Virus record (IMG/VR): IMGVR_UViG_3300013108_000188
Origin: a virus
DNA: 64,000 bases
Direction: 5' to 3' (one strand)
The position numbers were made by a program, and so were the translations under genes. The notes under the pieces are model-generated. The model made no database searches. It saw only the letters and a list, made by a program, of their open reading frames with translations, and was not told where the DNA came from. Below are positions 16,906-41,996 of this stretch, one piece after another; positions within the stretch are counted from its first letter, which is position 1, and every line of letters begins with the position of its first letter.

Positions 16906-17337
16906 CTACACTAATTTAGCGTAAACCTTTGATGAACCGTTAGACAATGTTTCGTATTTTACTTCTAATTTTAAATTATCAATACCAGGTCCATTATCTA
17001 CTACCACATCTTCAGGTTTAGTATCAGTTGTTTTTCCGTAAGTACCACCGAATTGTTTTACTTCACCAGTTACCGTTCCAGAAGTTCCTTCTAATTTCAT
17101 AGGACTAATATCTAATCCTATTCTCATTAGATTTTCTCTTAATTTGTCAACTGCAAATTGTGGTTTAATGTATTCCATATTTCCTACACTACCAACAAAA
17201 GCATTAACTCTATCTAAAACTCTTTGGTCTTTTAAATTCGCCGTACCTAAAGAACCGTCTTCAACTGCGTTTGAAGTTTGTACATTGACAGCACTTGCTG
17301 ACTTGTCTTCCTTTAAGTGTTCTCTAAAAGTTTTCAT
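16906..17337 (-). CDS. Hypothetical protein with capsid-targeting-like N-terminus
   Basis: Begins MKTFREHLKE. Confidence 0.65.
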   Translation of the reverse strand: MKTFREHLKEDKSASAVNVQTSNAVEDGSLGTANLKDQRVLDRVNAFVGSVGNMEYIKPQFAVDKLRENLMRIGLDISPMKLEGTSGTVTGEVKQFGGTYGKTTDTKPEDVVVDNGPGIDNLKLEVKYETLSNGSSKVYAKLV

Positions 17338-17439
17338 TTTTTCTCCTCTTTATCATTTATAGTTTGATTTGATTCTTCCTTATTTGGTTGAACCAAATCT
17401 TCCTCAAATTCTTCTAACTCTTTATCCGAGTTATCTATG

Positions 17440-17682
17440 TTATTTTTTATCTTCTCCATCTTCTTTTCCTTTAAGTTCTTGGTTAGCTTCCCTTAAAGTC
17501 AAATCGCTATCTGCTTTTCGCAAAAATTTTTCACAAACTTGTACTGCACCGTGTAAGGCATTTAGTTGTGATTTCGCACTTGCTAAATCTGTTTCTAATT
17601 TATTTACACTTTCAGTTAAAGCAGCTCGTTCTTTGTATAATTGATTAAATTCTTTCTCAATTATTGCTAATGATATTGCCAT
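17440..17682 (-). CDS. Small coiled-coil protein
   Basis: 80-aa ORF with GGAG RBS. Confidence 0.6.
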   Translation of the reverse strand: MAISLAIIEKEFNQLYKERAALTESVNKLETDLASAKSQLNALHGAVQVCEKFLRKADSDLTLREANQELKGKEDGEDKK

Positions 17683-17706
17683 TATAAACTCCTATAATAA
17701 TATTAA

Positions 17707-18156
17707 TTATGCTACTGCGTATCCGTGACCAGCGATTATATTCCATTTACTATTTTTGAATAATAATGTAACCGATTCTCCTTCTGCATTAAGAGTAATA
17801 GTTGAGTGTCCTCTTAAATTAGTTGGTGTGATTACGCAATTGTTTGCTCCAGTACCAATAGTTATTAATGTTTTAATTTGTCCATCAGAACCATCTGCTA
17901 GTGTTAATGCTGTTGCACCACCACTTTGGTCTACTTCTGATATTGCTGAGGTAACATTAGCCGCTGTACTAGATGAAGTTAATGCTTCACTAGCTTGGCC
18001 TAGTCCTATAAAACTAGGTATGTTATTGAAAACATTTTTTGCTGTTACCTTTTTATTTATTGGTGTGTTTGAAGGATCGTCAACAATGTGAAACAAATCC
18101 ACATCTGCTAACGCTGTGCCCAGGTCATCCAGGGCGGTGATTTTTTTGTCTGCCAT
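17707..18156 (-). CDS. Putative virion structural protein
   Basis: MADKKITAL start, Thr/Ala/Gly-rich beta body, late promoter upstream. Confidence 0.6.
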   Translation of the reverse strand: MADKKITALDDLGTALADVDLFHIVDDPSNTPINKKVTAKNVFNNIPSFIGLGQASEALTSSSTAANVTSAISEVDQSGGATALTLADGSDGQIKTLITIGTGANNCVITPTNLRGHSTITLNAEGESVTLLFKNSKWNIIAGHGYAVA

Positions 18157-18222
18157 TTTTTTCTCCTATAATTCCGATTTAACGGTAAACTACTCCGTAC
18201 ATCATATACGGACCATCTATAC

Positions 18223-18230
18223 TATTTATA
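18223..18230 (-). promoter_or_regulatory. T4-type late promoter TATAAATA
   Basis: Exact motif directly downstream of a terminator. Confidence 0.75.
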
Positions 18231-18234
18231 CAAA

Positions 18235-18262
18235 TAAAAAAGGGGACCATAAGGTCCCCTTT
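18235..18262 (-). terminator. Rho-independent terminator
   Basis: GGGGACC-TTAT-GGTCCCC hairpin followed by a T run on the minus strand. Confidence 0.85.
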
Positions 18263-18293
18263 GATATTATTACTAGATTTTGTTAGTTATCTA

Positions 18294-18878
18294 TTAACTT
18301 CCAACCGTAATAGTTCCAGCAGCTGATCCAACACCTGCTGAGATAGTTCTTACTGCGTTTCCGCCACCGATAGCATCCACTATTGTTGCGCCATTCAAAT
18401 TAATTGATTGAGCAGCAATTGATATTACATCATTTGCATTAACATTAGCGTTTGTAGCAGTTGCTGAAAAAGAAAGTGTATCTCTTGTTCCTGCACCACC
18501 ATCCATCGTTAAAGTAATTGAGGAAGCTCCTCCACTACCTGCTTGGTCATTAGAAACATACATTAGAGGCGAACCACCTGCAATTGTAACCTGTTCATTA
18601 AAGTGAACCTCTACCGTAATAGTTGATCCACCTGCACCTGAAATTGTTTGTCCAACTGCAAAGTTCACAGCGTCAATAGTTGCTTGTCCTAATTGTGTTG
18701 CTAAATCACCAATAGCGACTAATACTTCTGGAGTTGCGTTTGCGTTATCGTTTCCTGACGCTGCCGTACCCGCTTGTTGAACCCAACCACTTGAATTAGC
18801 ATAGACTTCTTTTTTCTGTGCTGCTGTTAGATTCTTTGGTTTCGACTCGTCATTTGTGTCTGCTCCCCATAGTCCCAT
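18294..18878 (-). CDS. Putative virion structural protein with Ig-like C-terminal domain
   Basis: MGLWG start, EVLVAI, VHFNEQVT; CATAAATA late-promoter variant upstream (18927-18934) and its own terminator. Confidence 0.6.
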   Translation of the reverse strand: MGLWGADTNDESKPKNLTAAQKKEVYANSSGWVQQAGTAASGNDNANATPEVLVAIGDLATQLGQATIDAVNFAVGQTISGAGGSTITVEVHFNEQVTIAGGSPLMYVSNDQAGSGGASSITLTMDGGAGTRDTLSFSATATNANVNANDVISIAAQSINLNGATIVDAIGGGNAVRTISAGVGSAAGTITVGS

Positions 18879-18942
18879 AATAGTCTCCTTATTAAATTTA
18901 ATTAATTAAACTTGATTAATCTGTTATATTTATGAATAATGA

Positions 18943-19542
18943 TTATTTGAAACCTAGTTTTCTCAATTCAGATATTGTATTACTAGTGCTTGTATGATGA
19001 ATACCTATACCACCTCTCGCTCTAAACTGCGATATATTCTTTATATAGTCATCAATTAGTATTGTAGGCATACCTCCAACCTTAGCAAAATTTTGTTTCT
19101 CTCTTCGTTTTACTAGGTTAACTTTATTGCCTGACATACCTAATCTTGTTCTTGCCCATTTTGATTTACCTGGTATACAATTAGGGTCAGTAGTTTGTTC
19201 TACATAAGCAGATAAAATATGTGGATCATATTTTCTTATAAACGACCATAGTCTTTGACCACCTGGCGCCCAAGGTAATGTAGACCAGAAGTTTTTAGTC
19301 TGCATTATTGGTTTCCACTTATCTCTTATTGATTTGAATTTCTTTCCAGGTTCTTTTGCCCATTGAGACATAGGCATACCTACTGCTTTTTCAGCAGCTT
19401 TTTCAAAATTACATACTACTCCATCCATATCACAATATATTCTAGGTAGTTTATCTCTTAAACCATCCCTTCTATACTCGTGGATATTCTCTAGTTTGTT
19501 TCTTTGATGGATTACATCCTGTCGGAGTTCTTTATATTTCAT
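18943..19542 (-). CDS. HAD-family 5'(3')-nucleotidase-like phosphatase
   Basis: IYCDMDGV, ILS, GK..W, ILIDD; start placed after the sigma70 promoter. Confidence 0.8.
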   Translation of the reverse strand: MKYKELRQDVIHQRNKLENIHEYRRDGLRDKLPRIYCDMDGVVCNFEKAAEKAVGMPMSQWAKEPGKKFKSIRDKWKPIMQTKNFWSTLPWAPGGQRLWSFIRKYDPHILSAYVEQTTDPNCIPGKSKWARTRLGMSGNKVNLVKRREKQNFAKVGGMPTILIDDYIKNISQFRARGGIGIHHTSTSNTISELRKLGFK

Positions 19543-19554
19543 AGTTTTTCTTTT

Positions 19555-19583
19555 ATTATAACACTTTCCCCACTTAAAGTCAA
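19555..19583 (-). promoter_or_regulatory. Sigma70-type early promoter
   Basis: TTGACT-N17-TATAAT with extended -10 TG. Confidence 0.8.
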
Positions 19584-19592
19584 GCAAAAAAA

Positions 19593-22580
19593 CTATGCGT
19601 GATAATCTATTCTTGGATTTACATCAATCTTGTCAGATTTTGTACCGTTATCAGTTTTTTTCTTTTCAGGTTCTTTTGTTTGTATATTCATAGGGTCAGT
19701 CTTTTGGGTAGGTTCCTGGGACTTCGGTAATATATCTGTATTATTATCACTTTCTTTCTTTGCTTTTTTAGCAACTAAAGTTTCCCATTTCTTTTTAGCA
19801 GGATGATTTTTATTTTCTATACCAAGTTTCTTTTTAGTTTGATTAGTTGCAACAGCATATCTTACACTATCACCTTTCTTCTTACCATACTGGTCTCTAA
19901 AAGATTTCTTTGGTAGTTCATCAGCTTTCTTATGTACTTTTTTAACTTGCGATTTTGTTAAGTCAGATTCAACTGCTCTTTTAGGTCTAATTCTAATTTC
20001 TTTTAATTTTTTACCACCTTCAGGTTCTTTTTCTGCAACTCTATATCCAAATCTATATTTTGGTTTTCTACTTCTAGCAAAACTACCTTGTCTTGTAGAT
20101 GTATTAGCACCACCTCTTTCATCAAGTTCTTTTTCTTCTTGTTTCTTTTCTTTTGGAATCTTATTATCTTTATCTGGCACACAATTAGGTACTTGTTTTC
20201 CACCTTTGTTTTTCATACCAACCTTTGTATATCCGTCCCAACACGCTTCACCTATTTCTTTATCTTCGTTGGCAGTTTTTAATGCTCTTGCAATAGTAGA
20301 TACTTTAGATAAATCTTTAGCAATCTTTTCTATTTCTCTTACTGCACCACTATAATTACCATCACTCTTTACAGCAATTTTCATTGCCTTTGCAACTTTA
20401 TCAGGACCATATCTTATAGGGTCAGGTGTTGCTTCTTGTAATTTGTTTCTTAAAGATTTAAATGTTTCTTTAACAATTGCTATTTTTTTAGTCTTTCTTA
20501 AATCACCAGTTTTATACCACTTAATAAATTTTTCTGCTTCTGCTTTAGTTTTATATGTACCGTGTATAAATTTACCACCATCCATTTTAGTTATCTGTAC
20601 AGAAAACGCTTCGTTTTGATTCATTAATGAATAGTAACCTGTTTGATTACCATACATCTTTTTAAATGTAGCAGGTTCTTTTTTCGCAATTAAGTCCATT
20701 ACATATTCTCTTGGAGAAGTATCACTAGCTTTTAAATGCTTTTTCAACTCAGCATATTTTTTAGCTTTTAATAAGTCAACAGACTTTTGGAACATCTGTT
20801 TATCCATACCACCTTTTGCTACTTTCTTTTGTAATTCAACAGCAGCATTTTCTTCTAATTCGTTTTCTTCTTTAGGTACACAATTTGGTACTTCTTTACC
20901 ATCTTTCTTTTTCATACCTATCATTTCATAATCTTTCCAACAAGGGTCTTTCTTGTCTTCTCCAACATCTTTTATTAAAAGTGTTTTAATACCTGCGTCA
21001 GATTTTAATCCAACTTCATCTTTGTATCTTCGTATTGCTTCTTTTTCATTTTTGCCTTCAACTTCCCAAGTCTTTTTACTAGGGTGTGAAACTCTATAAA
21101 CTTGTACACTTTCTTTAACTTCGTCTTTTTCTTTATCTGCTTTATCTTTTAAAAGTTTATGTGCTAAACCAACCGTTAAAGGTACTTCACCTGTCTCTTT
21201 GTTAGGCATTGGTTTAACTGCTTTGTTCTTTTCGTTTTCTAATTTTGTTCTTAACTGATTAATTTGACCTTGAGCAGCGATTAATTGTTTTTCTAAAGTG
21301 TCTGTATCTTTTTCTTTTGCAAGTTTAATTTTATCAACATCTTTTTCTTTAGTTTCTGTTGATGTTTTATCTTTCATAGCTTCAATAGATTTTTTAGGTT
21401 CTTCTTTCTCCTCAACTACACCAGTTTTACCTGTTCTTAATTTAGCATCCACAGGTGGATTGTATCTTCCCATTTTATCTATAGTGAAACCTTTTTTTCT
21501 TAACTTCTGTGCTTTGTTTTGAATATCTGATAAACTATCTCCACCTTCAAATCCATAATGTTTTCCATACTGACTATATGAAATCATATATGGTTGGATT
21601 TTTTCTTCTATTGGAGTTCTTTCGCCTGAAGTTTCTACTCCTGCAATGTTCCAAGCACTATCGTCCTGTTCTTTTGTTAGTACTCTTACATCATCGCCAT
21701 ACTTAGCAACAACTTGTTTGTGGATACTTTCTACATCTTTCGCACTATCAATTCTAACTTCTGAACCATCTGCGTTAGCTTCTCCACCACCAGTTTTACC
21801 TTTAAACATATTAGCAATAGCTTTTGCTTGACTAGAATTCTTTGCCATATATTCTATGTACTCAGCATACTCTACAAACAACCACTCTTTGTTTTCAGTT
21901 TTTAAATGAGACCTAGTTGCCAATTGCATATCTAAAATCTTTTTCATATTACCTGATAGTTCAATACCATCTGGAATATCTTTTACTTTTAATCCGTGTT
22001 GTTTCGCCAAAGAAACCATATTATCTTTTTCTTTTTTATTAGCGAAACCTCTAATAGTTCCTTTACCTTCTTCTACTTGTACAGCAGCATTAGCATTTTT
22101 TTCTTTAGTTGATTCTGTTAATTGTTCCCAAGTTTGTTCTTTAAAGGAAGATAATCTAACTCCTTTAGGTACTTGTATACCTTTCTTAATCATACGACTT
22201 AATGCCATAGTAGAAAGGAATGGAATATCTGCTTTGTATAATTTTGGTAGTTGTGAATTTGTTATCTTGTCAAAGATATTTCTTAATTGGTTTGCTCTCG
22301 CAAGTGAAATCTTAGCACCTTTTAAACTAGCGTAATCTTGTTTAAGTTTAGCAATTTGTCCATCTGAAAATTCCCACAACATTGCTTCAGCAATGTCTTC
22401 TTCTCCAAGTATAGTTTTAACCGTTGAGAGAGGTAGTTTCATTTTCTTTGCTATTTCGCTTGCTGATTTACCGTCAGCGAACATAGTAGCGATAGTTTTC
22501 ATCTTGCCTTCGTCCAATGTTATATCATTAGCCCAGACTTCTTCCATTGCCTCTCGCATTGATTTTGTATATCTTGTCAT
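19593..22580 (-). CDS. 995-aa modular Lys/Glu-rich protein, probable internal head polyprotein
   Basis: Many short modules bounded by hydrophobic-x-E sites; two CWxxY..GMK.K.GK.VPNCVP repeats. Confidence 0.6.
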   Translation of the reverse strand: MTRYTKSMREAMEEVWANDITLDEGKMKTIATMFADGKSASEIAKKMKLPLSTVKTILGEEDIAEAMLWEFSDGQIAKLKQDYASLKGAKISLARANQLRNIFDKITNSQLPKLYKADIPFLSTMALSRMIKKGIQVPKGVRLSSFKEQTWEQLTESTKEKNANAAVQVEEGKGTIRGFANKKEKDNMVSLAKQHGLKVKDIPDGIELSGNMKKILDMQLATRSHLKTENKEWLFVEYAEYIEYMAKNSSQAKAIANMFKGKTGGGEANADGSEVRIDSAKDVESIHKQVVAKYGDDVRVLTKEQDDSAWNIAGVETSGERTPIEEKIQPYMISYSQYGKHYGFEGGDSLSDIQNKAQKLRKKGFTIDKMGRYNPPVDAKLRTGKTGVVEEKEEPKKSIEAMKDKTSTETKEKDVDKIKLAKEKDTDTLEKQLIAAQGQINQLRTKLENEKNKAVKPMPNKETGEVPLTVGLAHKLLKDKADKEKDEVKESVQVYRVSHPSKKTWEVEGKNEKEAIRRYKDEVGLKSDAGIKTLLIKDVGEDKKDPCWKDYEMIGMKKKDGKEVPNCVPKEENELEENAAVELQKKVAKGGMDKQMFQKSVDLLKAKKYAELKKHLKASDTSPREYVMDLIAKKEPATFKKMYGNQTGYYSLMNQNEAFSVQITKMDGGKFIHGTYKTKAEAEKFIKWYKTGDLRKTKKIAIVKETFKSLRNKLQEATPDPIRYGPDKVAKAMKIAVKSDGNYSGAVREIEKIAKDLSKVSTIARALKTANEDKEIGEACWDGYTKVGMKNKGGKQVPNCVPDKDNKIPKEKKQEEKELDERGGANTSTRQGSFARSRKPKYRFGYRVAEKEPEGGKKLKEIRIRPKRAVESDLTKSQVKKVHKKADELPKKSFRDQYGKKKGDSVRYAVATNQTKKKLGIENKNHPAKKKWETLVAKKAKKESDNNTDILPKSQEPTQKTDPMNIQTKEPEKKKTDNGTKSDKIDVNPRIDYHA

Positions 22581-22585
22581 ATTAT

Positions 22586-24724
22586 TTAATCCCCTTGCGA
22601 ATTATTAAATTGTTTGAAAGATTGAACCTTTAAGCGTTCTTCCATCTTATTCGTTGCTTCTTCTAGTTCTTTCTCCCAATCTTCTCCGTATCTTGTCTTA
22701 TATTTATCAATAGTCTCACTTGAAGCAGCCCAATTCTTTATGTCTTCTTTGTCTATTTTTTCTGCCGATTGTTCTGCTCTCGTCTTACTATCTACTGGTT
22801 TCTCACTTGGCGTCTCTCCAGGTGTAATTTCTTTAGTATGATTAGCGTAATCTTTGCCTATTTCATACGATTCTTCTCGTTTTTTTATATCTTCATATGT
22901 CTTCTGTTTATTCATTTTGACTTCCGTTTCCGATACTGCTTCAAAACCATAATCAACATCTAGGTTGTGTTCGTGTAGTTTAACTTCATCTACATTACTA
23001 ACTGGTAGACAATTCCATATCCAACATTTGTGTAAGTTAGATTCTTTATCTTCTAGTACAATATAGTTTGTACTTCTACGGATTACTTTACCTGTTACCT
23101 CTTGTATGGTATCATTTACAATATCATTTGTGTTAAATAATTGTTCACGGATATACAAGTCTCTAATTTGCCATTGAGTAAATCTTTCTACGATTACTTT
23201 TTTCTTTGCTGTAGGATTAATATCAGCACTTGGAGCGTATGTTCCAAGTCCTGCACCTGTTGTATTTTCTAGGTTCATTCCTTTTCTTACTAATTTAAAT
23301 AGTCCATCTTTATCTCTATATGATACAGGTAGACCTCTTTTAAAACTTTGTAAATCGTTTTTGCTAGCGGCGTCTCGCATTTTACTTGCTGACATTCCCA
23401 TAGCTCCTTCAGCGTCTGGATCTCTTTCACCAGCACTTACTACATTAATTTTATCAAACTTGTAATTAGTTCCTCTTGCTTTTACTCCGTTATATTTTTT
23501 TAGAAGAGTATCAAATTCTCTTACTCGGTCACTTCCTACGACCATAGTTATTTGATTTGCTTTTCCATTTAGATTATTTAAAACTTCCATTGCTGTTCTA
23601 GCACCTGGGATTTGTTTTATCTTTGATGAGTGTCTAGGAAACATCTGTTTCATTATTCTCAACTTGTCAGTAATCTTTAATGGGTTTTTCTTTGCGTCTG
23701 TTGTTTTAGTAGGTATGATTAAGTAATCATTAGCACTAACACTTGCCACTTTATTAATAAGTTTTTCGTGTCCTATTGTAGGTGGATTAAATCTACCAAA
23801 TGTAAATGCTATATGTTTTTTAGGTGAACCTACTGCTTCTTTAAGACTATCAATTTCGGCGTCTGTAACCTTGCCGTCATCTAAAATCTTTTTACATTTC
23901 TTATAAAATTTTAAGTAGTGATATTTTTCTAACATCTTATAGATTACATTTTTAGGTAATCTATTTTTAATACCATACTTTCTAATTTCATCTGGCGACA
24001 TATCTTTATCAAACGCTGCTCTTCTATCTGCGTCAACATCATCGCCTATTTTTATTATGTCCTTTATACTATCTTCTATCTCTTTAAGTTTCTTTTCTAT
24101 TTTACTTTGTAAGTTTTCTATATCGTTAGGACCTAATTCTTTTAATTCGTCATAGTCAATTATATCTCTTTTTAATTCTCCTTTGACTACATCTAATTCT
24201 TGTACTTTTCTATTGAAGTCTTTGATATAATCATTTACATTGAAAACAAAATCTGCTGGTCTCTTTATAAATTTATTTTTTCTTATATCAAAACTTGCGT
24301 CTGCCTTTTCTTGTTGGTCATCATATATTTTTGGATCCGCTATCATAAAATAGTTAATCGGATGCTTCGTACCTGGTATTAATTTACCTTGTACATTTTT
24401 TGGATTAGATGAAGATATAAACTTCATAACTAATCTTTCTCTTTCTGCTGGTCTATCTTTATCTTCAGGTATATCAAACAATACATTGATGTCCAAGTCT
24501 GCGTCATCACGGTATCTCTTTGTTAAGATAGAACCAATTAATCCTATTTTAATTACAGGATATTCTTTTGCAAAAACTTTTATTTGGTCTTCTATTTGTT
24601 TAACAACACTCGGTTTAAGTTTTGGATTCTTTGTATCAGCGTCATCAAATACACCAGGAGCATATGTTCGTCTTGGTATATCTATGATACTTTCTTTTAT
24701 AAAATTTTTAAATCTACTTAACAT
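22586..24724 (-). CDS. Pol-beta-type nucleotidyltransferase fused to HIGH-family (cytidylyl/NMN adenylyl) transferase
   Basis: GSILTKRYRDDADLDINV; FTFGRFNPPTIGHEKL, VVGSDR, MSASKMR. Confidence 0.8.
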   Translation of the reverse strand: MLSRFKNFIKESIIDIPRRTYAPGVFDDADTKNPKLKPSVVKQIEDQIKVFAKEYPVIKIGLIGSILTKRYRDDADLDINVLFDIPEDKDRPAERERLVMKFISSSNPKNVQGKLIPGTKHPINYFMIADPKIYDDQQEKADASFDIRKNKFIKRPADFVFNVNDYIKDFNRKVQELDVVKGELKRDIIDYDELKELGPNDIENLQSKIEKKLKEIEDSIKDIIKIGDDVDADRRAAFDKDMSPDEIRKYGIKNRLPKNVIYKMLEKYHYLKFYKKCKKILDDGKVTDAEIDSLKEAVGSPKKHIAFTFGRFNPPTIGHEKLINKVASVSANDYLIIPTKTTDAKKNPLKITDKLRIMKQMFPRHSSKIKQIPGARTAMEVLNNLNGKANQITMVVGSDRVREFDTLLKKYNGVKARGTNYKFDKINVVSAGERDPDAEGAMGMSASKMRDAASKNDLQSFKRGLPVSYRDKDGLFKLVRKGMNLENTTGAGLGTYAPSADINPTAKKKVIVERFTQWQIRDLYIREQLFNTNDIVNDTIQEVTGKVIRRSTNYIVLEDKESNLHKCWIWNCLPVSNVDEVKLHEHNLDVDYGFEAVSETEVKMNKQKTYEDIKKREESYEIGKDYANHTKEITPGETPSEKPVDSKTRAEQSAEKIDKEDIKNWAASSETIDKYKTRYGEDWEKELEEATNKMEERLKVQSFKQFNNSQGD

Positions 24725-25553
24725 TAAGTCCTCGTTGTTTTATAAGATTCATAAATGCTTTTGGGTCTTGTTGTTTTAATTTAAATAAAAATGGATTTGC
24801 ACTATAAGGATTTGTCATATCTTTTCTAGCTTTAATATCTTTGTCAAGTTGTTTAATAGCATCCGCTGTAAGTTTTGCTAATGCTGTTTGTTTTTTAGTA
24901 TCTAATTGTATTTGCATCCATCTTTTTGCTACTATACTTCTAACAGGTGCTCTTACTAATCCTCTAACTCTACCCCATAATTTATTTAATATATCTTCAT
25001 TTGCATTATTATTATCTACTACAATAAAATTACTTCTACCAAAAGAAGTTTGAAATTTTCCAATATTATTTTGTACGGTTTGCCAACTCTTTCTAGTAAT
25101 ATCTTCTGGCACTCTTCTAGTTCTAGTTCTATTTCTTTCTAACGCAACTTCTAAACTTGTATTAACAAATATCATATAGCAATCATAACCTAACATTTGT
25201 AGTAATGATTTCTGTCTACTGATAATACTATAATCTCTTCCTGTTGCGTCAATAACAAGACCTAATCTACCTTGAATATATAAATCCATTTGGTCGCCTG
25301 TAACCTTTTTTGCTTTTGCTCTTAATGGGTCTCTTAAAGCAGCTTCTTTATCAGGCATTTTTAAACTTAATCCTGCCTTTGTTAAATATCTTTCAAATCT
25401 TGTATCTGAATTAACTAACTTCAAACCCATACCACCAGTTGACCTGTTGGTTACATAAGTCTTACCACTACCAGGTCCACCTGCAAGGAAAAATGCCTTG
25501 AATATACCTGGGTCATAAACGCCTTCTTGTATTACTTGTTTAAATAATTTCAT
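24714..25553 (-). CDS. P-loop kinase (zeta-toxin/PNK-like)
   Basis: LAGGPGSGKT, VNSD, LVIDATG, lid ALERNRTR. Confidence 0.75.
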   Translation of the reverse strand: MKLFKQVIQEGVYDPGIFKAFFLAGGPGSGKTYVTNRSTGGMGLKLVNSDTRFERYLTKAGLSLKMPDKEAALRDPLRAKAKKVTGDQMDLYIQGRLGLVIDATGRDYSIISRQKSLLQMLGYDCYMIFVNTSLEVALERNRTRTRRVPEDITRKSWQTVQNNIGKFQTSFGRSNFIVVDNNNANEDILNKLWGRVRGLVRAPVRSIVAKRWMQIQLDTKKQTALAKLTADAIKQLDKDIKARKDMTNPYSANPFLFKLKQQDPKAFMNLIKQRGLNVK

Positions 25554-25840
25554 ACTTTATAAAAAGTGTACTTTAATGTTAACTCTTCTCCCTTTTTAAT
25601 ATCTCTTAATGTTTGTAGATACCATTTATTATCTACTTCAATCTTTTGACAATTTGGTTTCTCACTATGATTAATAAAACCTCCTAATGGAGTTCTATAC
25701 AATTCTCTTCCAATTTTGATATGACTTATACCTAAATCATCCATCTTGTCAAACTTTTTTGTAGCAAATAAACCTTGTTCGTGTATTTTGCTATCTTGTA
25801 TTCTTAATCCATCTGGTAATGGTTTATATTTTTCCATCAA
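25550..25840 (-). CDS. SET-domain methyltransferase
   Basis: SKIHEQGLFA, GGFINHSEKPN, RDIKKGEELTLKY. Confidence 0.85.
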   Translation of the reverse strand: MMEKYKPLPDGLRIQDSKIHEQGLFATKKFDKMDDLGISHIKIGRELYRTPLGGFINHSEKPNCQKIEVDNKWYLQTLRDIKKGEELTLKYTFYKV

Positions 25841-26423
25841 TCTCTTTCATTATATCTTTAGCTATATCTCCTGCTTCTTTTCCTTCTGCTTTGATAGAAA
25901 TAAAACCAGGTTTCTTTCTAAAGTGGTCTATCGCTGGACCAGTTTCTTTTTTATAGAGAGCAATCCTATCTGATATAATCTTTGGTGTATCATCTTTTCT
26001 TCCTCTCTTTGATAATCTTCTAATCACTTCTTCTTTTGAAACATCTAGGAATACAACTACATCATAACCAATTCCTTCTCGTTCCATATCTCTAACTTGT
26101 TGCATATATCTAGGATAGCCATCCATAATATAACCTTTTTTAGCGTCAGGTTCTAATAATGCTTCCTTAATAAGTTTTAAAACTATTTCGTTTGGTGCAA
26201 ATTGTCCTTTATCTAATAAGTTTTTAATTTTTTCTGCTTCTGCACCACCTTTATCTATCTCTTTTCTTAATAGACCACCTGGATAAATATGTTTTATTCC
26301 ATATCGTCTAATCAAATATTCTGAATAGGTTGACTTACCACTTCCAGGTCCACCCATAATAATAATTCTTGTTTGTTTGTCTTCAAGTAATTGTTGTTCG
26401 TAAAAATTTCTAAATGTTTTCAT
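25824..26423 (-). CDS. adk: Adenylate kinase
   Basis: GGPGSGKST, GLLRKE, IMDGYPR, RGRKDD (short lid). Confidence 0.88.
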   Translation of the reverse strand: MKTFRNFYEQQLLEDKQTRIIIMGGPGSGKSTYSEYLIRRYGIKHIYPGGLLRKEIDKGGAEAEKIKNLLDKGQFAPNEIVLKLIKEALLEPDAKKGYIMDGYPRYMQQVRDMEREGIGYDVVVFLDVSKEEVIRRLSKRGRKDDTPKIISDRIALYKKETGPAIDHFRKKPGFISIKAEGKEAGDIAKDIMKEIDGKI

Positions 26424-26558
26424 TTATTCTCCATTAAACTCATCTTCGTTAAAAGGTCGTTTCCCACAACTACAATCATCACATACACACACGCCATATT
26501 CATCTGCGTGTAGTTCTTCGTTGCAATGACAATCGTGGTGACAATTTTTACACTTCAT
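26424..26558 (-). CDS. 44-aa Cys/His-rich metallothionein-like peptide
   Basis: MKCKNCHHDCHCNEELHADEYGVCVCDDCSCGKRPFNEDEFNGE exactly fills the gap between neighbouring genes. Confidence 0.65.
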   Translation of the reverse strand: MKCKNCHHDCHCNEELHADEYGVCVCDDCSCGKRPFNEDEFNGE

Positions 26559-26842
26559 TAACTTTTAACCTTACTACTTGCTCTCCATTGATAACAACTC
26601 CAGTATCTTGCTTTCCATTTAGGTCCTGGATTATCACAATTATGTCTTGCTCTAAATGACGCTCTTCTGTCTTCGCTATCTCTTTTAATTTCCATATTAG
26701 GATCGCCAAAAGTTACCTTAACTACTTTACCTGATCCGTTCTTAACATAAACACCAAACTTTTTTGAATTGCCTGAAGGCAATCTAAAAGGTTTATTTAA
26801 TGTCTTTTTTACTTCTGCTGATTTTTCTTCGTATGTTTTCAT
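26558..26842 (-). CDS. Conserved small basic phage protein (DUF6321-like)
   Basis: KKFGVYVKN..KVTFGDPNM..SFRARHNC..ARYWSC; likely start MKTYEE. Confidence 0.7.
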   Translation of the reverse strand: MKTYEEKSAEVKKTLNKPFRLPSGNSKKFGVYVKNGSGKVVKVTFGDPNMEIKRDSEDRRASFRARHNCDNPGPKWKARYWSCYQWRASSKVKS

Positions 26843-28059
26843 TATCCTTTTACCCAATCTTTAGCGATAGTAAAGTTTGCTCTACTAAATTCTAATCTAT
26901 CTACTAACTTAACTACATTACCTATTCTATCAGTAGCAACAAATCCTTCTGGTGCTGTAACCTTATAACCACTATTAGTTCTAATAAAATGTCCAACACT
27001 TTGTATCTGTGCTAACTTCTGTAATAATATATTCTTACAATTTTGTAATGTTATATAACTTGCTATTGCCATATATAATGCTCTACTATTTCTATCTATA
27101 AACTTTAAATTTATTTCTTTTGCCTGTTTATATTTTGCTTTACCTTTTTCAGTTTTCTTACTATCTATTTCTGCGTCTATAAAGTTTTCGTAATAACTTC
27201 TAAAATTCTGTTGTAGTACTTTAACACTACCTATTGTACCTCTACTATTTCTTATAATAGAATTGAAATAACTTTTTAATCTAAACCCTACTGATAATTG
27301 GTCTCTACTATCAAACTCATTTAATAATGGAGCAGCTTTTCCTAAACTACCTTCTGCCATTCTTAACATTGCATTAAATCTAGCAATCTCACCTTTACTA
27401 AAACTAGCACTACCACTAGCGTCTTTATATTGTGCCGATGGTATCCATACTGACCCACTTTTAACACCTCTTACATATCCATAAGACGCACTTAAACTAT
27501 CCATAGTCTTACCACTATAAGATGTATGAAAAACTATTCCCATTCTTGCTCTTGCAATTTGTCTTCCCACAGGACTATCAACTGGCATTGCATATGTAAT
27601 TGTATTAGGAGTAAAAGTAATCATACTTTGTCCATCTATACTTGTAATTTTTTTATCTTCTCCTGTGAACAAACAATCACCTTGTAGTATTCCTCTAATA
27701 CCAAGTTTCTTTAGTTCTCTTAAAGCAACTTGTAATTTAGAACCAACACCACCTGGATGATTTCTTGCTATGTCTGCTGAAGTGTAATTTATTTTAGGAG
27801 TTTTATTGAATACAGATTTGGTGCCGACAAAGAATTTGCCATTTTCAGGATTGATTCCACATATAATAGCAGGTGCACCATCCCACTTAACGGTTACATT
27901 AACTTTCTTGCTAGTGCTAGCAGATAACATCTGTCGCAAAGATTTTAAAAACGCTATAGCGTTTCTGCCACCTGTGGCACCGTCATTTATTATACTATCT
28001 TCTAAATGCTCTAGGTGTGTATTTGTTCCCGAGCTAGAATATCCTTTAAAACTAAACAT
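26842..28059 (-). CDS. ATP-dependent ligase-like protein (DUF6267-like)
   Basis: HLEHLED, TVKWDGAPA (motif I KxDG), LQGD, PEGFV, VKLVDR.EFS. Confidence 0.7.
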   Translation of the reverse strand: MFSFKGYSSSGTNTHLEHLEDSIINDGATGGRNAIAFLKSLRQMLSASTSKKVNVTVKWDGAPAIICGINPENGKFFVGTKSVFNKTPKINYTSADIARNHPGGVGSKLQVALRELKKLGIRGILQGDCLFTGEDKKITSIDGQSMITFTPNTITYAMPVDSPVGRQIARARMGIVFHTSYSGKTMDSLSASYGYVRGVKSGSVWIPSAQYKDASGSASFSKGEIARFNAMLRMAEGSLGKAAPLLNEFDSRDQLSVGFRLKSYFNSIIRNSRGTIGSVKVLQQNFRSYYENFIDAEIDSKKTEKGKAKYKQAKEINLKFIDRNSRALYMAIASYITLQNCKNILLQKLAQIQSVGHFIRTNSGYKVTAPEGFVATDRIGNVVKLVDRLEFSRANFTIAKDWVKG

Positions 28060-28126: not shown

Positions 28127-28134
28127 TATTTATA
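28127..28134 (-). promoter_or_regulatory. T4-type late promoter TATAAATA
   Basis: Exact motif upstream of the 28059-19593 enzyme operon. Confidence 0.75.
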
Positions 28135-28135
28135 T

Positions 28136-29524
28136 CTAATATACTTTGCATTTCTTACCCCATTGTTCTTTTAATATCTCTTTAAATTCAGGTGTTAATG
28201 TAGCTTGAAATTGAGGTTGTCCTGTAAATGAACCTTTATATCTTAATAGCATATTTAAAACATTTAATTTACCTTTTTTAAGATTAAAAAAAACTCTAGC
28301 TCCATCTGATTTTTTATTGGCTGCTTCATCTAACTCCATTACATATTTTGAATTACTTTTATTTAAAGCACTCAATCCACACATTACGGTATATAATCCT
28401 TTTGCTGGTATATGACCTATTTTAGGATTTCTATCTTTATCTATATCTCCTACAGCAGTTATCAAAGAAAAAGCAAAAGTGTGTTCATCTAACTCTTTAT
28501 ATAATTTATGTTTTAAAATTAAATTTAATAAAGCAGCGGCAAACTGCTCACTATACTTGTTTATAACTGGAACCATAGCGGAATAAACAGAATCTTTACT
28601 CGCTACTTTCCTATTGACAAACGCTCTCATACTTATCTTTTCATTTTTCAGTTCGCCAGGTTTAAATTCTCTATATTTTTTATTTGATTTATCAAAAATT
28701 TGAAAAACATTTGGGTCTGTTTGTTTGGTTGGGTTTATTAAATCAATATCACCTTTACCTTTTATGTTTATTAAGAACATTGGATCTTTAGATTTAAATA
28801 CATTTTTAACATTTCCTGACAACTTAATTTTCATAAGTTGCTCATCATTAGCAGGTAAAGTACCTTTTTTAATTTTTAGATATTTTGCTTTTACTGCTTC
28901 TCTAACAATCCTAGCAAAATACTTTGTTCTTGCCTGTTCAACTTGCTTTTTAATTTGAGCCATTGTTTTTAATTCTTTAGGAGAATCAGATTGTAGTACA
29001 CTATCAAATGCTTTGTTAATTAAAGGAGGATCCCCACTTGTTACCAATGGTTTTTTCTTTAACGAAACTCCATAAAAGGATAGTCCTTTAGGATTTCTCC
29101 ATTGAATAATTAAATCGGATGAGTTGTAAGATTGAAATCCATATGCCGCTATTTGAAATTTTTTAACTTCTTCAGGCCAACTATCTCCTGTTAAGAAAAC
29201 TTTTATAGGAATTTGTGAAGCAGTAATAGGTGTACCAGATTCCCTTGACCTTACTGGTGCCCATTCTCTAATAGAATTGGCAGCAGAAATGCCTTGAGCA
29301 GCTGCTATTAAAAAATCTTTATCATTAATATCAAATGCTTTTAAAAATTTGTCTTTTGTACCATCGGCATAGACAACTTTATTACTTTTAGCTATCTTTT
29401 CACCTTCTTTTAGAAATTTTATTAATCCGTTAGCGTCTTTAGAATATTTGAGTAAGTCGCTAGGACTCATTAACATCGCTACGGATGCCATTATTTCTGA
29501 TGGTTCTACTCCAATTTTTGCCAT
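28136..29524 (-). CDS. Hypothetical protein, possible PD-(D/E)XK-like nuclease
   Basis: SSDLII...GVSLKK pattern; late promoter upstream. Confidence 0.45.
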   Translation of the reverse strand: MAKIGVEPSEIMASVAMLMSPSDLLKYSKDANGLIKFLKEGEKIAKSNKVVYADGTKDKFLKAFDINDKDFLIAAAQGISAANSIREWAPVRSRESGTPITASQIPIKVFLTGDSWPEEVKKFQIAAYGFQSYNSSDLIIQWRNPKGLSFYGVSLKKKPLVTSGDPPLINKAFDSVLQSDSPKELKTMAQIKKQVEQARTKYFARIVREAVKAKYLKIKKGTLPANDEQLMKIKLSGNVKNVFKSKDPMFLINIKGKGDIDLINPTKQTDPNVFQIFDKSNKKYREFKPGELKNEKISMRAFVNRKVASKDSVYSAMVPVINKYSEQFAAALLNLILKHKLYKELDEHTFAFSLITAVGDIDKDRNPKIGHIPAKGLYTVMCGLSALNKSNSKYVMELDEAANKKSDGARVFFNLKKGKLNVLNMLLRYKGSFTGQPQFQATLTPEFKEILKEQWGKKCKVY

Positions 29525-29543: not shown

Positions 29544-29551
29544 TATTTATA
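29544..29551 (-). promoter_or_regulatory. T4-type late promoter TATAAATA
   Basis: Exact motif immediately after the tRNA CCA end. Confidence 0.7.
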
Positions 29552-29627
29552 TGGTGCCCTTTACTGGACTTGAACCAATAACCTACTGATTACAAATCAG
29601 TTGCTCTACCAATTGAGCTAAAAGGGC
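29552..29627 (-). tRNA. tRNA-Thr(UGU)
   Basis: GCCCTTTTAGCTCAATTGGTAGAGCAACTGATTTGTAATCAGTAGGTTATTGGTTCAAGTCCAGTAAAGGGCACCA: 76-nt cloverleaf with encoded CCA. Confidence 0.95.
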
Positions 29628-29894: not shown

Positions 29895-29895
29895 A

Positions 29896-31260: not shown

Positions 31261-31567
31261 CTAATAATGTTCCGTTTTTCAGTTTTTCTTCCATAATCTC
31301 TATCAGTATATCACCAATATAATTTATAAAACCTGGTTGGTCTAAATCTAAATCTAGTTCTTCTGGTTTCTTTAATAAAGTCCATTCAAATTGCAATGGC
31401 ATTTTGCCATTGTCTAATGGTTCCTTACTAAATTGTACCTTACCATATCTGTAAATAACATCTTTGTATTTACCTTCAACGATTTTTATACAACTAAAAT
31501 CGTCTCCAGGTCTTTGAGCAAAGGTGTATCTTTTATCCGTAGAGGAATTGTTTTTTTGCTTGTTCAT
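31250..31567 (-). CDS. Hypothetical protein (gp40 position)
   Basis: Lies between uvsX and gp41. Confidence 0.6.
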
Positions 31568-32549
31568 CTATCTTGTCTAATACTTCTTTTGTAAAATACT
31601 TTTCAGGATTATCATTGATTGCTTTACCAAATACTTTAGTTCCGTCTGGCATTTCATACCTAGTGGATACTTTTTTAAATATACCTGCTTCTTCAGCAAT
31701 AGCTACAAGTCCGTAATACTTATCTAAACCTTTTTGATAAGTTAACATTACATCAATCATAGCATTTTCTTTTGTTAATCTACTTTTATAATTTTTACAA
31801 TGAATAATATTACCGACAACTTCCGTGCCGTCTTTCACTTTTCTTTTTCCAAGATAAATTATTGATGAGGCAGCGTATTTAAGACCACTTCCGCCACCCA
31901 TTTCTTTTTGTGGGAACATTGAACCTATTACATCGTAAGTATGATTGGTCATAATCATAGGTATATTTGCTTTACCTAGTTTCAATGTTAATACTCTAAA
32001 GGTTGACTTCACTATTTGAGACCTTGTCATATCTCTAGTCTCTTTACCTTCTGCTGTATCTGTCATTTCTTTAGTTGTGGATAACATACCCAAACTATCT
32101 AATACAAACATTATAGGTTTTCTTTTGTCTTCTGGACTCTCCAGATACTTGTCAACTATTTTAATTGATTGTGTTCTAAATTCTTGTACGGTTGAAACTG
32201 GTACTACTACAAATCTTTTACTATCAATACCTCTATCTTCAATCATATTTTTAGATACAGCACTTTCACTTTCAAAGTAGATAACTCCTGCGTCTTTGTT
32301 ATCATCTAAAAAGTGTTTGCATATTCCTAATGCAAAGAAAGTTTTACCTGTAGCGGCCTCACCTGCAATAGCAGTTATTTTATTACCAGGCATTCCGCCA
32401 TATATACTTCCTGATAATAGAGCATTAAGAGAATAGCAACCTGTATCAACAAAACTTGATACATCGCCAGCGTCAACTCCTTCACTTGCTAATGTGGCAT
32501 ATTCGTTGCCAGTTTCTTTTATAATGTCTTTTAAAAAATCATTTGTCAT
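31533..32549 (-). CDS. uvsX: UvsX RecA-like recombinase
   Basis: [32 protein letters not shown]. Confidence 0.95.
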
Positions 32550-32558
32550 ATTTTCTCC

Positions 32559-34141: not shown

Positions 34142-34220
34142 TTTTCTTTAAGGTTTAGGGTCTTCATTGTTCCACATAATTAATAATGATATAGGTACTA
34201 CATATATCAAAGTTGTCAGT

Positions 34221-34249
34221 ATTATACTATAAAAAATTAACATAGTCAA
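34221..34249 (-). promoter_or_regulatory. Sigma70-type promoter
   Basis: TTGACT-N17-TATAAT. Confidence 0.75.
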
Positions 34250-34254
34250 GCATC

Positions 34255-34587
34255 CTAGATGTTTTCAAATTCCTCCAAGTGTAAATCTATTCCTATAAGT
34301 TCATCTGGTTTACCTTTAGGATAACTCGGCCATACTTTAAATTCTTCTCCTGTTGTATCACTCTTACAACCTGCAACTAACCAATCCCATTTAAAATCTC
34401 CATCTATAACAAACTCGTTCATCACTTCATATCTTCCATCAGGTTTTTGTTTAAGTAATTCTTCTTTACACTCGTCCATTGTTTTAAACCAACCTTGCAT
34501 TTGAAAAGTTTGTTGTGTATCTATTGGACTATGACCAATTAGATATGCTAATATTAATATTTTAAAATCAGCCATTGTACCTTTCAT
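34255..34587 (-). CDS. Hypothetical protein
   Basis: ORF track; hydrophobic N-terminus and two Cys. Confidence 0.55.
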   Translation of the reverse strand: MKGTMADFKILILAYLIGHSPIDTQQTFQMQGWFKTMDECKEELLKQKPDGRYEVMNEFVIDGDFKWDWLVAGCKSDTTGEEFKVWPSYPKGKPDELIGIDLHLEEFENI

Positions 34588-35617: not shown

Positions 35618-35687
35618 TTCTTTTTCCTCTTAACTAACCAAGTAATTATACCAGACAAAAAAGCAAATAAAGCACCAATGCCTAATC

Positions 35688-36776: not shown

Positions 36777-36866
36777 CTTTTAAAAATTGTTCTATCTTTG
36801 GCCATTGACTTGCTGGAAAATCGTGTATCAATTGTTCCTGACCTGCATTTCTGTATATCACTAATC

Positions 36867-37355
36867 TCATTTTGTAAGTTCATATTCAAAATTTTGTGTC
36901 TCTTTGTTTATACTAATTTGTTTTGCACCATTTCTAATATGATAATGTGTTGCCATTGGTGTTAATGGCGATAAGGTAACTAATCTTTTAATCTTATTCT
37001 TTTTAGCCCACTCTATTACCTTTTTCATAATCTCTTTACCTGCACCTCTCTTACGAGACCATACCGTATATGCAATAGCATTATTCTTTTCATTTTTTAT
37101 ATCTGCAAGTTCACTCATCATATCTAATTCTTTTATATTGTGAGGAATATCGTTTGTAAATGCAACACAAATAATACCTTCAATCTCATCTTCATATTTT
37201 AATCCATATATCTTTCTACCTTTAGTTATTCTCCAACCTAAAGTTAGTTCAGGTCTTACAGGATCCTCCTCAACATCTATGTCATCTAGTTCAACTAGTT
37301 CAGTTCCTTTAACCCACTTATAAAAGTTTTTAAATTTATCTTTAAATAATTCCAT
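36867..37355 (-). CDS. Hypothetical protein, GNAT-like
   Basis: YTVWS.KRGAGK acetyl-CoA-loop-like motif; TLSP..MA..H..NGA. Confidence 0.55.
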   Translation of the reverse strand: MELFKDKFKNFYKWVKGTELVELDDIDVEEDPVRPELTLGWRITKGRKIYGLKYEDEIEGIICVAFTNDIPHNIKELDMMSELADIKNEKNNAIAYTVWSRKRGAGKEIMKKVIEWAKKNKIKRLVTLSPLTPMATHYHIRNGAKQISINKETQNFEYELTK

Positions 37356-39838: not shown

Positions 39839-40203
39839 TATATATTCTCCATATCTCTTAAATGAACAATCAAACCATTATGTTTAGGTGTTAAAATAAC
39901 TTGACAAGCTAACCTAGAATACATACGGTCATATTCAGGTTGCATTTCCATTAATTCTGTTTCTAAACTATTATGTTCAGCAGGACCTACTCTATTAATA
40001 TCTTCTTTTATATTAATATGACAAGTACCACACGCTTGACATCCTCCACAATCGGCAGGAATCTCATCAATGGAAGTATTAGCAAATTTCTTTGCCGCTT
40101 CCATAATTGTAAAACCTGGCGGTACTTTGACTTCTTGTTTTGTGCCGTCTTTACTTACAAAGTATATTGTCAAAGTATCCTTCTGTTGGATACTATCTGA
40201 CAT
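39838..40203 (-). CDS. fdx: Adrenodoxin/ISC-type [2Fe-2S] ferredoxin
   Basis: CGGCQACGTCH ... SRLACQ. Confidence 0.9.
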   Translation of the reverse strand: MSDSIQQKDTLTIYFVSKDGTKQEVKVPPGFTIMEAAKKFANTSIDEIPADCGGCQACGTCHINIKEDINRVGPAEHNSLETELMEMQPEYDRMYSRLACQVILTPKHNGLIVHLRDMENI

Positions 40204-40493
40204 TATGTTATTAATCCTGGTCCTTGAATAATTTTACTTACACTTTGTTTATAACTAGCAAGTAAGTCTTGTTTTGGTTCCACCGTTGTTAATATCTTGT
40301 CATCTGCAAAAGTAACCGTATCGGTTTCTGCATATGGGATATAAGTGAACATACCAAACTTCATTGACTTCCCTGCTTCGGGAGCACTTGTTGGATAAAT
40401 GATATATGGATTTTTGACAGAAGTTGTTCCGTCTTTTTTTGAAATTTCTCCGATAATATCTTCACCTGTTATTAGTCTTACTATTTTTACCAT
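40203..40493 (-). CDS. Conserved small T4-like protein
   Basis: IVRLITGEDIIG start, common in marine myoviruses. Confidence 0.65.
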   Translation of the reverse strand: MVKIVRLITGEDIIGEISKKDGTTSVKNPYIIYPTSAPEAGKSMKFGMFTYIPYAETDTVTFADDKILTTVEPKQDLLASYKQSVSKIIQGPGLIT

Positions 40494-40502
40494 AATAACT
40501 CC

Positions 40503-40531
40503 ATTATATTATAATTGTTAGTCTTTGTCAA
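40503..40531 (-). promoter_or_regulatory. Sigma70-type promoter (fdx/gp43 operon)
   Basis: TTGACA-N17-TATAAT. Confidence 0.8.
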
Positions 40532-41996
40532 TAGGCGGCAATCTCTTACTTAATACGAAAGTCCTACTAGGATTTACGCTAGCGTGAAACTGCCTAATCA
40601 TATCTCTATTTAACAAGACATCCGAACCTGACCTTGGTCTTTGGTCTAGTCCAAATTCTATATCTTTATAAGTAAACCCATTGAAAGTCATATCTAACAA
40701 TACGGTTTTTCTTATTTCGCTTGGTTCATCACCAGCGTTTGCTCTAAAAACTCTACTCTCTCCGTGAATTGGTTTAGTATATGTTTTCTTATTATACTTC
40801 CAACTTACCGTTTTACCTTTTATCTTAATATCTTCTGCGTGTAATGAACAAGCTTTAGCTCCATTACCTGTATCTAACTTGGCTCTTATCTTACCAATGT
40901 CTTCTAATTCTATTGTCTCTAACCAACCTGTTTCTATAATTGATTGTCTATCCCAATTACTTCTATCAGAAATATATTTAACAAAGTTTTTAACTAATTG
41001 TTTACCAGTAATTGCACCTCCAGGATTTGGTCCTTCAAGGTCTTTATATGCGTAACCTTCATAATCAGCACCAGTACCAGGAGAACCATTGACTTCAAGT
41101 ACATAGTACTTACCATCAACAATAATATGGTCTACTCCAACTACATATGCTTTACTAGCTCTACTAGCTTTTAAAATAATTTCTATTTCATCATCATTTA
41201 ATTTATAAGGTACTGCCTTAGCACCTCTATGTGTATTAGTTCTAAAATCAAAAGATGATTGTATTCTTTTTGTACTAGCAAATATCTTATTATCTGCTAC
41301 AAAAGTTCTTATATCAAATTTAACAGGCATAAATTCTTGTATTAATAATTCTGCTTCGTGTTTCCATAGTGATTGAATAGTAGATACAAGCGACTCATAA
41401 CTATCACATTTAACAACTCCGATACCTTGCGTACCTGTTAATGTTTTTAATACTACTGGAAACTTACCACCTATTAGTTTTACTGCGTCATCTATATTTT
41501 TTTCGTTAGATACGAAAGCAGTTCTAGGTGTTGGTATTGCAAACTTTTCAAATAATAATGCTGTTGTTAATTTATTATTACAAGTTAACATTGAGTTTCT
41601 TGTATTAATCATAAACGAACCAGAGTTTTGAAAAGCAGATATGATTGAAAGTCCTGCTTCATCTTCAACTGCACCTGCTCTAGTAATACAAATGGTGTCT
41701 CTACCAATAAATGTATGTTCAGTATCTTTACCATCATAGTTATAGATGGTTAAAGTATTCTTTTCTTCGTCTTTACCTGTTATGATTGCGTGTCTAGTTT
41801 CAATAACTATACACTTGATTTTCAATTCTTCGCAAGTCTCAGCAATCAGACCAACGGTTAATTCCTTTTTCTCCTTACCACCAACTTTTCTTTTTTTGAT
41901 GTTCGGATGAGTTTTGGTAACTACCGCTATCTGTATAGTTCTATCAGAACCTTTTTTTGCTTCGGTTATGAAATCTTTGAAATTTGATACTTGCAT
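40518..41996 (-). CDS. RimK-like ATP-grasp ligase fused to RimK-associated aspartic-protease-like domain
   Basis: NKL.T, PVVLK..GTQGIGV, QEF, DIR, FRTN.HRG, GVD, LEVNGSPG; C-terminal AKLDTGN...LLNR. Confidence 0.85.
   Translation of the reverse strand: MQVSNFKDFITEAKKGSDRTIQIAVVTKTHPNIKKRKVGGKEKKELTVGLIAETCEELKIKCIVIETRHAIITGKDEEKNTLTIYNYDGKDTEHTFIGRDTICITRAGAVEDEAGLSIISAFQNSGSFMINTRNSMLTCNNKLTTALLFEKFAIPTPRTAFVSNEKNIDDAVKLIGGKFPVVLKTLTGTQGIGVVKCDSYESLVSTIQSLWKHEAELLIQEFMPVKFDIRTFVADNKIFASTKRIQSSFDFRTNTHRGAKAVPYKLNDDEIEIILKASRASKAYVVGVDHIIVDGKYYVLEVNGSPGTGADYEGYAYKDLEGPNPGGAITGKQLVKNFVKYISDRSNWDRQSIIETGWLETIELEDIGKIRAKLDTGNGAKACSLHAEDIKIKGKTVSWKYNKKTYTKPIHGESRVFRANAGDEPSEIRKTVLLDMTFNGFTYKDIEFGLDQRPRSGSDVLLNRDMIRQFHASVNPSRTFVLSKRLPPIDKD

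Follow-up and report, generated by a model that had tools for sequence, protein, structure and literature searches.

The 64,000-nucleotide stretch of DNA analyzed here (the window; IMG/VR virus record IMGVR_UViG_3300013108_000188) is, judged from its sequence, a portion of a T4-like, SAR11-phage-type myophage (pelagimyophage). Among cultured phages, Pelagibacter phage HTVC008M is the closest to it (~71% nucleotide identity, in patches); the window has a G+C content of ~31%, and practically all of its genes lie on the minus strand. Several of its enzymes start with a short peptide reminiscent of the signal that directs the internal proteins of phage T4 into the prohead, and these N-termini are probably T4-type capsid-targeting leaders carried by enzyme cargo. 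The targeting mechanism is known from T4; what would be new is the kind of cargo, the phage lineage concerned, and the idea that split and polyprotein forms are equivalent. The N-termini that the initial annotation had quoted were all found on the minus strand (genes at 16906-17337, 22586-24724, 24714-25553, 25824-26423, 26558-26842, 26842-28059 and 40518-41996), and Pfam and PHROGs support the enzyme identities it had proposed, i.e., nucleotidyltransferase (NTase), P-loop kinase, adenylate kinase (Adk) and RimK. Sequence comparisons support its reading of these peptides as a discrete, conserved and exchangeable leader of the T4 capsid-targeting type, present also on homologs found in virions; the window copy of DUF6267 lacks the Glu site.

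In T4, the leader MKTYQEFIAE (PMC8442874) depends on residues 4 and 7 for targeting and on residues 8 and 10 for processing, cleavage occurring after L/I-x-E (PMC9026906). The T4 record confirms this signal, which the initial annotation had given as established knowledge: ipII and ipIII begin with MKTYQEFIAE, their leaders being identical at 30/30 nucleotides, while ipI begins with MKTFKEF..ITE|A. A motif was drawn from the critical positions (aromatic at 4, hydrophobic at 7, I/L at 8, Glu at 10) and written as ^M-x(1-4)-[FYW]-x-x-[FYWILVMH]-[ILV]-x-E. It starts 4/71 window proteins, namely p143, the NTase, the kinase and RimK, as compared to 0.21-0.34 expected from its rate at internal protein positions and 0.32 under a null model preserving the residue composition at each position of 269 pelagiphage N-termini (P ~3e-4); since the motif was settled in part with the data in view, this P value serves as an indication only, and the independent tests described below were given more weight. 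The strict expression misses T4 IPI because the IPI cleavage site is located at residue 19, and it therefore under-calls. At the level of single determinants, p143, the NTase, the kinase, Adk, RimK and DUF6267 harbor F/Y at positions 4-6 and F/Y/V/H three residues further on, and the closing I/L-x-E is LKE in p143, IKE in the NTase, IQE in the kinase, LLE in Adk and ITE in RimK. It is missing from the window copies of p94 (MKTYEE), which keeps Y4 alone among the targeting determinants, and DUF6267 (MFSFKGY). The latter had been flagged as weak from the outset and the former is weak too; relatives of both possess clear leaders with I/L-x-E.

One alternative is that AT-rich genes favor helical N-termini rich in Lys, Thr and Phe, which close relatives then inherit, with no common role. 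An F or Y is found at residue 4 in 19% of the 269 pelagimyophage N-termini (window plus HTVC008M), far over the usual share of F plus Y, a bias that reflects either many further degenerate leaders or a translation-related effect. UvsX and the DNA polymerase start similarly, and the HTVC008M homologs have degraded starts such as MIPFILKEG or MKTLKELLRKK. Such a generic resemblance is at odds with the composition-aware null, which predicts 0.32 occurrences where four are observed, and with the equally AT-rich HTVC008M, in which the anchored motif is found in 0/198 proteins, without any enrichment; the strict motif is hence lineage-dependent. It is also at odds with the behavior of the leader in related phages, and we consider it quite improbable.

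The most telling result is the portability of the leader across cargos. A scan of IMG/VR for FKDFITE identified this heptapeptide at the N-terminus of at least eight unrelated cargo families: RimK types 1 and 2, DUF6267, the kinase (where it stands directly before GVYD), the HIGH-type NTase, p143, a GC119-like module resembling the C-terminus of GC119 from cyanophage S-SM1, and orphan small ORFs. The enzyme families headed by the heptapeptide are those flagged in the window. Nearly all non-N-terminal occurrences belong to a single family of RNase H. T4-like genes are found on every sampled contig where the copy is N-terminal, and are lacking from four contigs where it is internal or non-coding. 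The exchange is also visible in the DNA, whose homology ends exactly behind the leader. Two related loci (L117 and L118) match the window at 97-100% identity across regA and as far as ~40 nt into the RimK gene and then become unrelated, their cargo being a RimK-type protein 31-33% identical to that of the window; in a third (L116), the upstream DNA is 73% identical and the leader 29/30. The same situation is encountered with ipII and ipIII of T4, in which the leader DNA is kept while the cargo differs.

Retention of the motif within families was analyzed in 95 related loci fetched independently of the motif, in which ORFs were grouped by window homolog and distinct N-termini were counted. The motif is present in 4/4 N-termini for p143, 7/7 for the kinase, 23/26 for RimK, 2/4 for the NTase, 2/6 for Adk and 2/4 for p94. 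It is found in 0/24 other families of these relatives, including regA (0/25), gp62 (0/16), gp44 (0/15), the SET-domain protein (0/8) and gp41 (0/5).

Homologs bearing such leaders occur in virions of other T4-superfamily phages. According to the parts of the S-SM1 proteome report considered here (Sullivan et al. 2010, PMC3037559), purified S-SM1 virions contain T4-GC190, a putative cytidylyltransferase (25 peptide counts), GC119 (13 counts) and GC1455 (7 counts); GC1453, GC1454, GC1455 and GC425, which belong to the syntenic block of GC190, are also reported there. GC190 begins with MKKFSAFLNE and GC1455 with MLSFKELQE, and these leaders are kept in all recovered cyanophage homologs (n=80 and n=31, respectively), the x of L-x-E being the variable position. 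GC190 is homologous to the HIGH-type half of the window NTase (38% identity over NTase residues 305-573), displays the same leader pattern, and belongs to a syntenic block flanked by gp41 and the S-layer-like protein; unlike the window, the cyanophage block contains neither the kinase, nor Adk, nor the Pol-beta NTase domain. The same parts of the report describe virion detection only and make no mention of a leader or of processing.

A second example is the Agrobacterium phage Atu_ph07, in whose virion proteome gp53 (87.08 kDa) was identified with 31 peptides and 45% coverage, together with gp54 (56.49 kDa) (Attai et al. 2018, PMC6102473). Computed masses match these two proteins to AUZ94865 and AUZ94866, and AUZ94865 combines, in one fusion, an ADP-ribosyltransferase-like domain with a homolog of the window kinase (39-42% identity). 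Proteins gp53 to gp63 were all detected in virions, and all begin with M[KR]WxQL[TN]E or a close variant, a common eight-residue N-terminus ending, as in the window, with L-x-E; the original report is silent on this feature. Unlike in the window, the consensus is M[KR]WxQL[TN]E, the kinase is placed behind the ADP-ribosyltransferase-like domain, and the phage is a distant jumbo relative. In Ralstonia phage RsoM2USA, the kinase homolog (MTTFKEYLLE) belongs to a run of five genes with leader-like starts, one of which, ORF257, is ascribed to an abundant virion band in the published paper. Elsewhere in the RsoM2USA genome (171.5-182 kb; L043, L044), ~12 paralogs of ~200 amino acids begin with M[KR]LxEI.., with L-x-E at residues 3-5, and may represent another leader dialect in a jumbo phage. 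A full-text literature search returned no paper in which enzymes of cyanophages or pelagiphages are linked to a capsid targeting sequence.

The predicted cleavage site can be followed into fused forms. In related loci (L014, L016-L020), a single ORF of 1182 residues comprises the kinase, a PAP2-like phosphatase and both NTase domains, and its joints read ..GIRE|S and ..NLQE|S (in full, ..NMVNLQE|SIIDIPRR), the latter being the point at which the window NTase gene starts with its own leader. I/L-x-Glu is kept at these joints, as would be expected if the protease acting on the leaders also cut there. HTVC008M possesses an annotated prohead protease and a scaffold, and its major capsid protein reads FLGE|I at the site homologous to FLTE|A of T4 gp23. 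Similarly, the ejection or inner-body proteins of phages phiKZ, 201phi2-1 and SPN3US comprise many packaged proteins, some of them enzymes, that are cut after Glu by a gp21-like protease, and module joints serve there as cleavage sites. The phiKZ-type system differs by its S/A-x-E motif, its long propeptides without a common 10-residue tag, and its unrelated lineage.

Conservation, portability and family specificity show that the leader has a function, not which one. It could be a genuine portable module that docks the enzymes to a common partner, for example a chaperone, a protease other than that of the prohead, or a multi-enzyme repair complex; or it could mark them for regulation or degradation. 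The kinase, the ligase-like protein and the NTases resemble parts of a single pathway, as such docking would have it, and RimK as well as a T4 protein with the same leader are encoded in early replication regions. The latter, T4 gp61.1 (NC_000866, 18966-19130, L325), is 54 amino acids long, lies next to the primase gene and begins with MKTFKEFIKED, a start that combines the IPI and IPII/III leaders; it thus shares the oddity of RimK, and no mention of gp61.1 as a head protein was found. Another T4 match, at 114210-114440, was considered as gp67 and rejected, as it lies in frame behind UvsW (UvsW.1 region), and it was not counted as a positive. Docking or tagging is nevertheless unlikely, given that the residues kept are those that T4 needs for targeting and gp21 processing, that virions of two unrelated T4-superfamily phages contain homologs with such leaders, and that I/L-x-E is kept at the module joints of the fused forms.

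The kinase, a polynucleotide-kinase-like P-loop protein (24714-25553, minus strand; AAA_33/Zeta_toxin), carries the leader MKLFKQVIQE (nt 25524-25553) and a GGPGSGK motif, its P-loop strand beginning at residue 19. In its AF2 model, residues 1-9 have a pLDDT below 50, as compared to 82 for the remainder. The best Foldseek matches are 4gp6, 4gp7 and 4jt2 (C. thermocellum polynucleotide kinase, Pnkp; target TM 0.73-0.76, E 2e-6), and a PDB sequence search gave no match; the modeled fold is thus closest to polynucleotide kinases, the substrate being a prediction. Among 40 homologs, F4 is nearly invariant and E10 invariant, and the residues in between vary among the 120 homologs retrieved (MKQFKQIIQE, MKSFEQILSE, MIPFILKE, MERFIIQE). 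A Kolga siphovirus match, considered as a non-T4 kinase control, was ruled out, as it corresponds to the SET-domain gene and yields no control.

The short-type adenylate kinase (25824-26423, minus strand; Pfam ADK, E 1e-37) carries a 14-residue leader, MKTFRNFYEQQLLE (nt 26382-26423). Residue 2 of E. coli Adk pairs with residue 19, PDB alignments begin at residues 16-19, and the core begins 2-4 residues past the leader, which is thus a genuine N-terminal extension. The leaders of Adk relatives read MVQTFVNFLKE and MLGFKDYIINHLLE. Adk is among the weakest cases, as the virion evidence does not extend to it.

The double nucleotidyltransferase (22586-24724, minus strand; Pfam, PHROG) associates a Pol-beta NTase and a HIGH-type cytidylyltransferase-like domain behind the leader MLSRFKNFIKE (nt 24692-24724). 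An internal SLKE|A (residues 293-296) is found directly ahead of the HIGH domain, where stand-alone cytidylyltransferases begin. To note, the NTase C-terminus reads ..LKVQSFKQFNNSQGD and that of its fused relative ..LKIQSFKDYVKI; this leader-like string at the extreme end may be the remnant of a joint to a further module.

DUF6267 (26842-28059, minus strand; PF19782, E 3e-123) keeps in the window the aromatics at 4 and 7 of MFSFKGY, while in other lineages it begins with M[EKN]FKDFITE, directly before an NTH..H.ED motif. K58-W-D60-G61, E371-G372 and K384 are invariant in 26 sequences, and these KWDG, EG and K motifs of covalent nucleotidyltransferases suggest a ligase-like protein. Fold searches (Foldseek, VIA-align) returned weak rows without a clear fold (T4 Rnl1, E 0.2-0.4; tRNA ligase 6n0t, Z 5.0, residues 58-210), so the ligase assignment stands on these motifs. 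The pLDDT of its AF2 model is below 50 at residues 1-16.

The last enzyme, a fusion of a RimK ATP-grasp domain and a Zn_protease-like domain (40518-41996, minus strand; Pfam), starts with MQVSNFKDFITE (nt 41961-41996). Across 33 distinct sequences, F6 and E12 never vary and F9 and I10 hardly do, while linker residues 13-19 are the most variable stretch within the first 70 residues.

These structural data bear on the possibility that the peptide is integral to each enzyme fold and stays attached, for example as a helix that caps the P-loop domain. The invariance of E10, G11, Y13, D14 and P15 in the kinase would be explained in this way, as would the conservation of VTEG where the domain is internal in Atu_ph07; moreover, the Zeta_toxin profile aligns from kinase residue 19 at profile position 17. 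Against this, canonical Adk begins at residue 19, cyanophage DUF6267 and the short cytidylyltransferase of P-HM2 lack the peptide altogether, AF2 confidence drops below 50 for the leader only (kinase and DUF6267), and a single peptide cannot fit eight different folds. An integral role of the peptide is thus very improbable.

Most of the candidate cargo genes are clustered in a tightly packed minus-strand operon spanning 29.5 to 19.6 kb (29544 to 19593). The T4-type late promoter motif TATAAATA lies at 28127-28134 on the gene strand, as the initial annotation had noticed, 68 nt before the DUF6267 start, and a second one (29544-29551, minus strand) is located 20 nt before p462 and directly after a tRNA-Thr (29552-29627, minus strand; anticodon tgt), which adjoins it on the upstream side. 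The window contains seven copies, every one on the gene strand and upstream of gene starts, when 17 would be expected on both strands; a 7/8 match precedes p143. The best sigma-70-like promoter (19583-19555) is found just past the operon end, and the operon runs without a strong terminator before the sole one on its strand, at 18262-18239. Promoter motifs by themselves do not establish late timing, and late expression of the operon is predicted. The late setting put forward for these genes is supported for the operon by the two TATAAATA copies ahead of it; RimK belongs to an early cluster and has no late motif in front.

The operon opens with p462 (28136-29524, minus strand), a basic protein without leader. 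It occupies the same place as virion protein T4-GC1453 in S-SM1, and no sequence similarity between the two was detected. The SET-domain protein (25550-25840, minus strand; Pfam) is also an operon member without leader. The operon ends with p995 (19593-22580, minus strand), a basic (pI 9.5), modular protein whose N-terminus follows MTRY..A-[IML]-x-E. It contains two CW[KD]GY..NCVP mini-domains (residues 545-573 and 779-805), weakly similar to S-SM1 virion protein T4-GC119 (E 0.03-0.15), and an internal WEQLTE|S (residues 151-157) identical to the leader of the Atu_ph07 virion paralogs. Within the operon, p94 (26558-26842, minus strand) is small, basic (pI 10.1) and contains Cys; its relatives begin with MEWEELILE and MKYDDLVQE.

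Downstream, the 13.5-19 kb region harbors late and virion genes (spanins, tail chaperone, homolog of an S-layer-like virion protein) and includes p143 (16906-17337, minus strand), a 143-residue protein of unassigned family with no Pfam or PHROG match. Its leader, MKTFREHLKE (nt 17308-17337), agrees in its opening five residues with T4 IPI and gp61.1 (MKTFKEF), and its homolog in locus L141 begins with MKTFKDFITE. In its vicinity, the window copy at 16537-16899 begins with MFKQITE and is homologous to cyanophage T4-GC198, whose homologs begin with M[KR]FDELNE, close to the Atu_ph07 leader M[KR]WEQLNE; GC198 is absent from the S-SM1 virion table in the parts of that report considered here. The replication cluster of the window comprises gp41, UvsX, gp43, gp44/62, regA and gp45.

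If events follow those known for T4 IPI-III, the leader would attach to the prohead scaffolding core, the tagged protein would be enclosed while the shell assembles, a gp21-type prohead protease would cut after the leader Glu, and the freed enzyme would stay in the head and exit with the DNA. The cargo would come mainly from the late operon (DUF6267, p94, Adk, the kinase, the double nucleotidyltransferase and p995), together with p143 and possibly the RimK fusion, and the fused polyproteins of relatives would be cut at their I/L-x-Glu joints by the same protease. Core binding, cleavage and packaging in the window phage, as well as a function after ejection, are thus proposed from T4 and from homologs in other phages.

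The resemblance to T4 IPI, IPII, IPIII and Alt extends to a leader of ~10 residues in which position 4 is aromatic, position 7 hydrophobic, and positions 8-10 read I/L-x-E. MKTF[KR] is common to IPI and the window, letter for letter, and enzymes are among the cargo in both, T4 Alt being an ADP-ribosyltransferase. Unlike the small anti-restriction proteins of T4, the putative cargo consists here of nucleotide and RNA-end enzymes (polynucleotide-kinase-like, ligase-like, two NTases, Adk, RimK fusion). Two further differences are a leader offset that varies by 0-2 residues and the position of one tagged gene, RimK, in an early operon.

Several observations weigh against capsid targeting. The motif expression was tuned post hoc, and the N-terminus of UvsX (31533-32549) resembles the leader, this look-alike, absent from the list of the initial annotation, being kept across the lineage. 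We take it to be a RecA-type N-terminal helix; UvsX is surely not cargo and marks the false-positive rate of the motif. The RimK gene sits behind regA in the early replication cluster, a window scan detected no TATAAATA ahead of it, and RimK is for this reason among the weakest cases. The head module is not present within the 64-kb window. The kinase Glu-Gly is also kept where the domain is internal in Atu_ph07 and could therefore be structural. The virion evidence comes from leader-bearing homologs in other phages, none of them pelagimyophages, and has its own gaps: DUF6267 (T4-GC71) does not figure among S-SM1 virion proteins in the parts of PMC3037559 considered, and neither S-PM2 nor Syn9 virions yielded GC190. 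Genome-wide in S-SM1, the association between motif and virion detection is not significant (2/~5 motif genes detected, for a base of 41/240), a test with too few cases. Finally, the Atu_ph07 particles were PEG-purified only, and their list includes low-level replication proteins (PMC6102473).

The nature of the cargo suggests a common purpose. The kinase, the ligase-like DUF6267, the two NTase domains and the phosphatase of relatives suggest a kit for healing and sealing RNA or DNA ends. A broader reading, which we put forward tentatively and regard as possible rather than probable, is that a single exchangeable leader serves marine T4-like phages as a cargo code, loading into the head a preformed kit for healing and sealing RNA ends (the polynucleotide-kinase-like kinase, ligase-like DUF6267, nucleotidyltransferases of the CCA and NMNAT types and, in relatives, the PAP2-like phosphatase) together with Adk and a RimK-type ATP-grasp enzyme. 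Once injected, these enzymes would counter host tRNA-cleaving or nucleotide-depleting defenses before phage expression, split genes and polyproteins being two forms of the same system. If capsid targeting by this leader is true, the cargo of phages abundant in the ocean (myophages of SAR11, OM43 and cyanobacteria) would be predictable from sequence alone, and the unexplained cytidylyltransferase in cyanophage virions would be accounted for. It would mean that phages pre-load repair and metabolic enzymes, beyond inhibitors only, and the leader would be usable as a handle to package foreign proteins into non-model phages.

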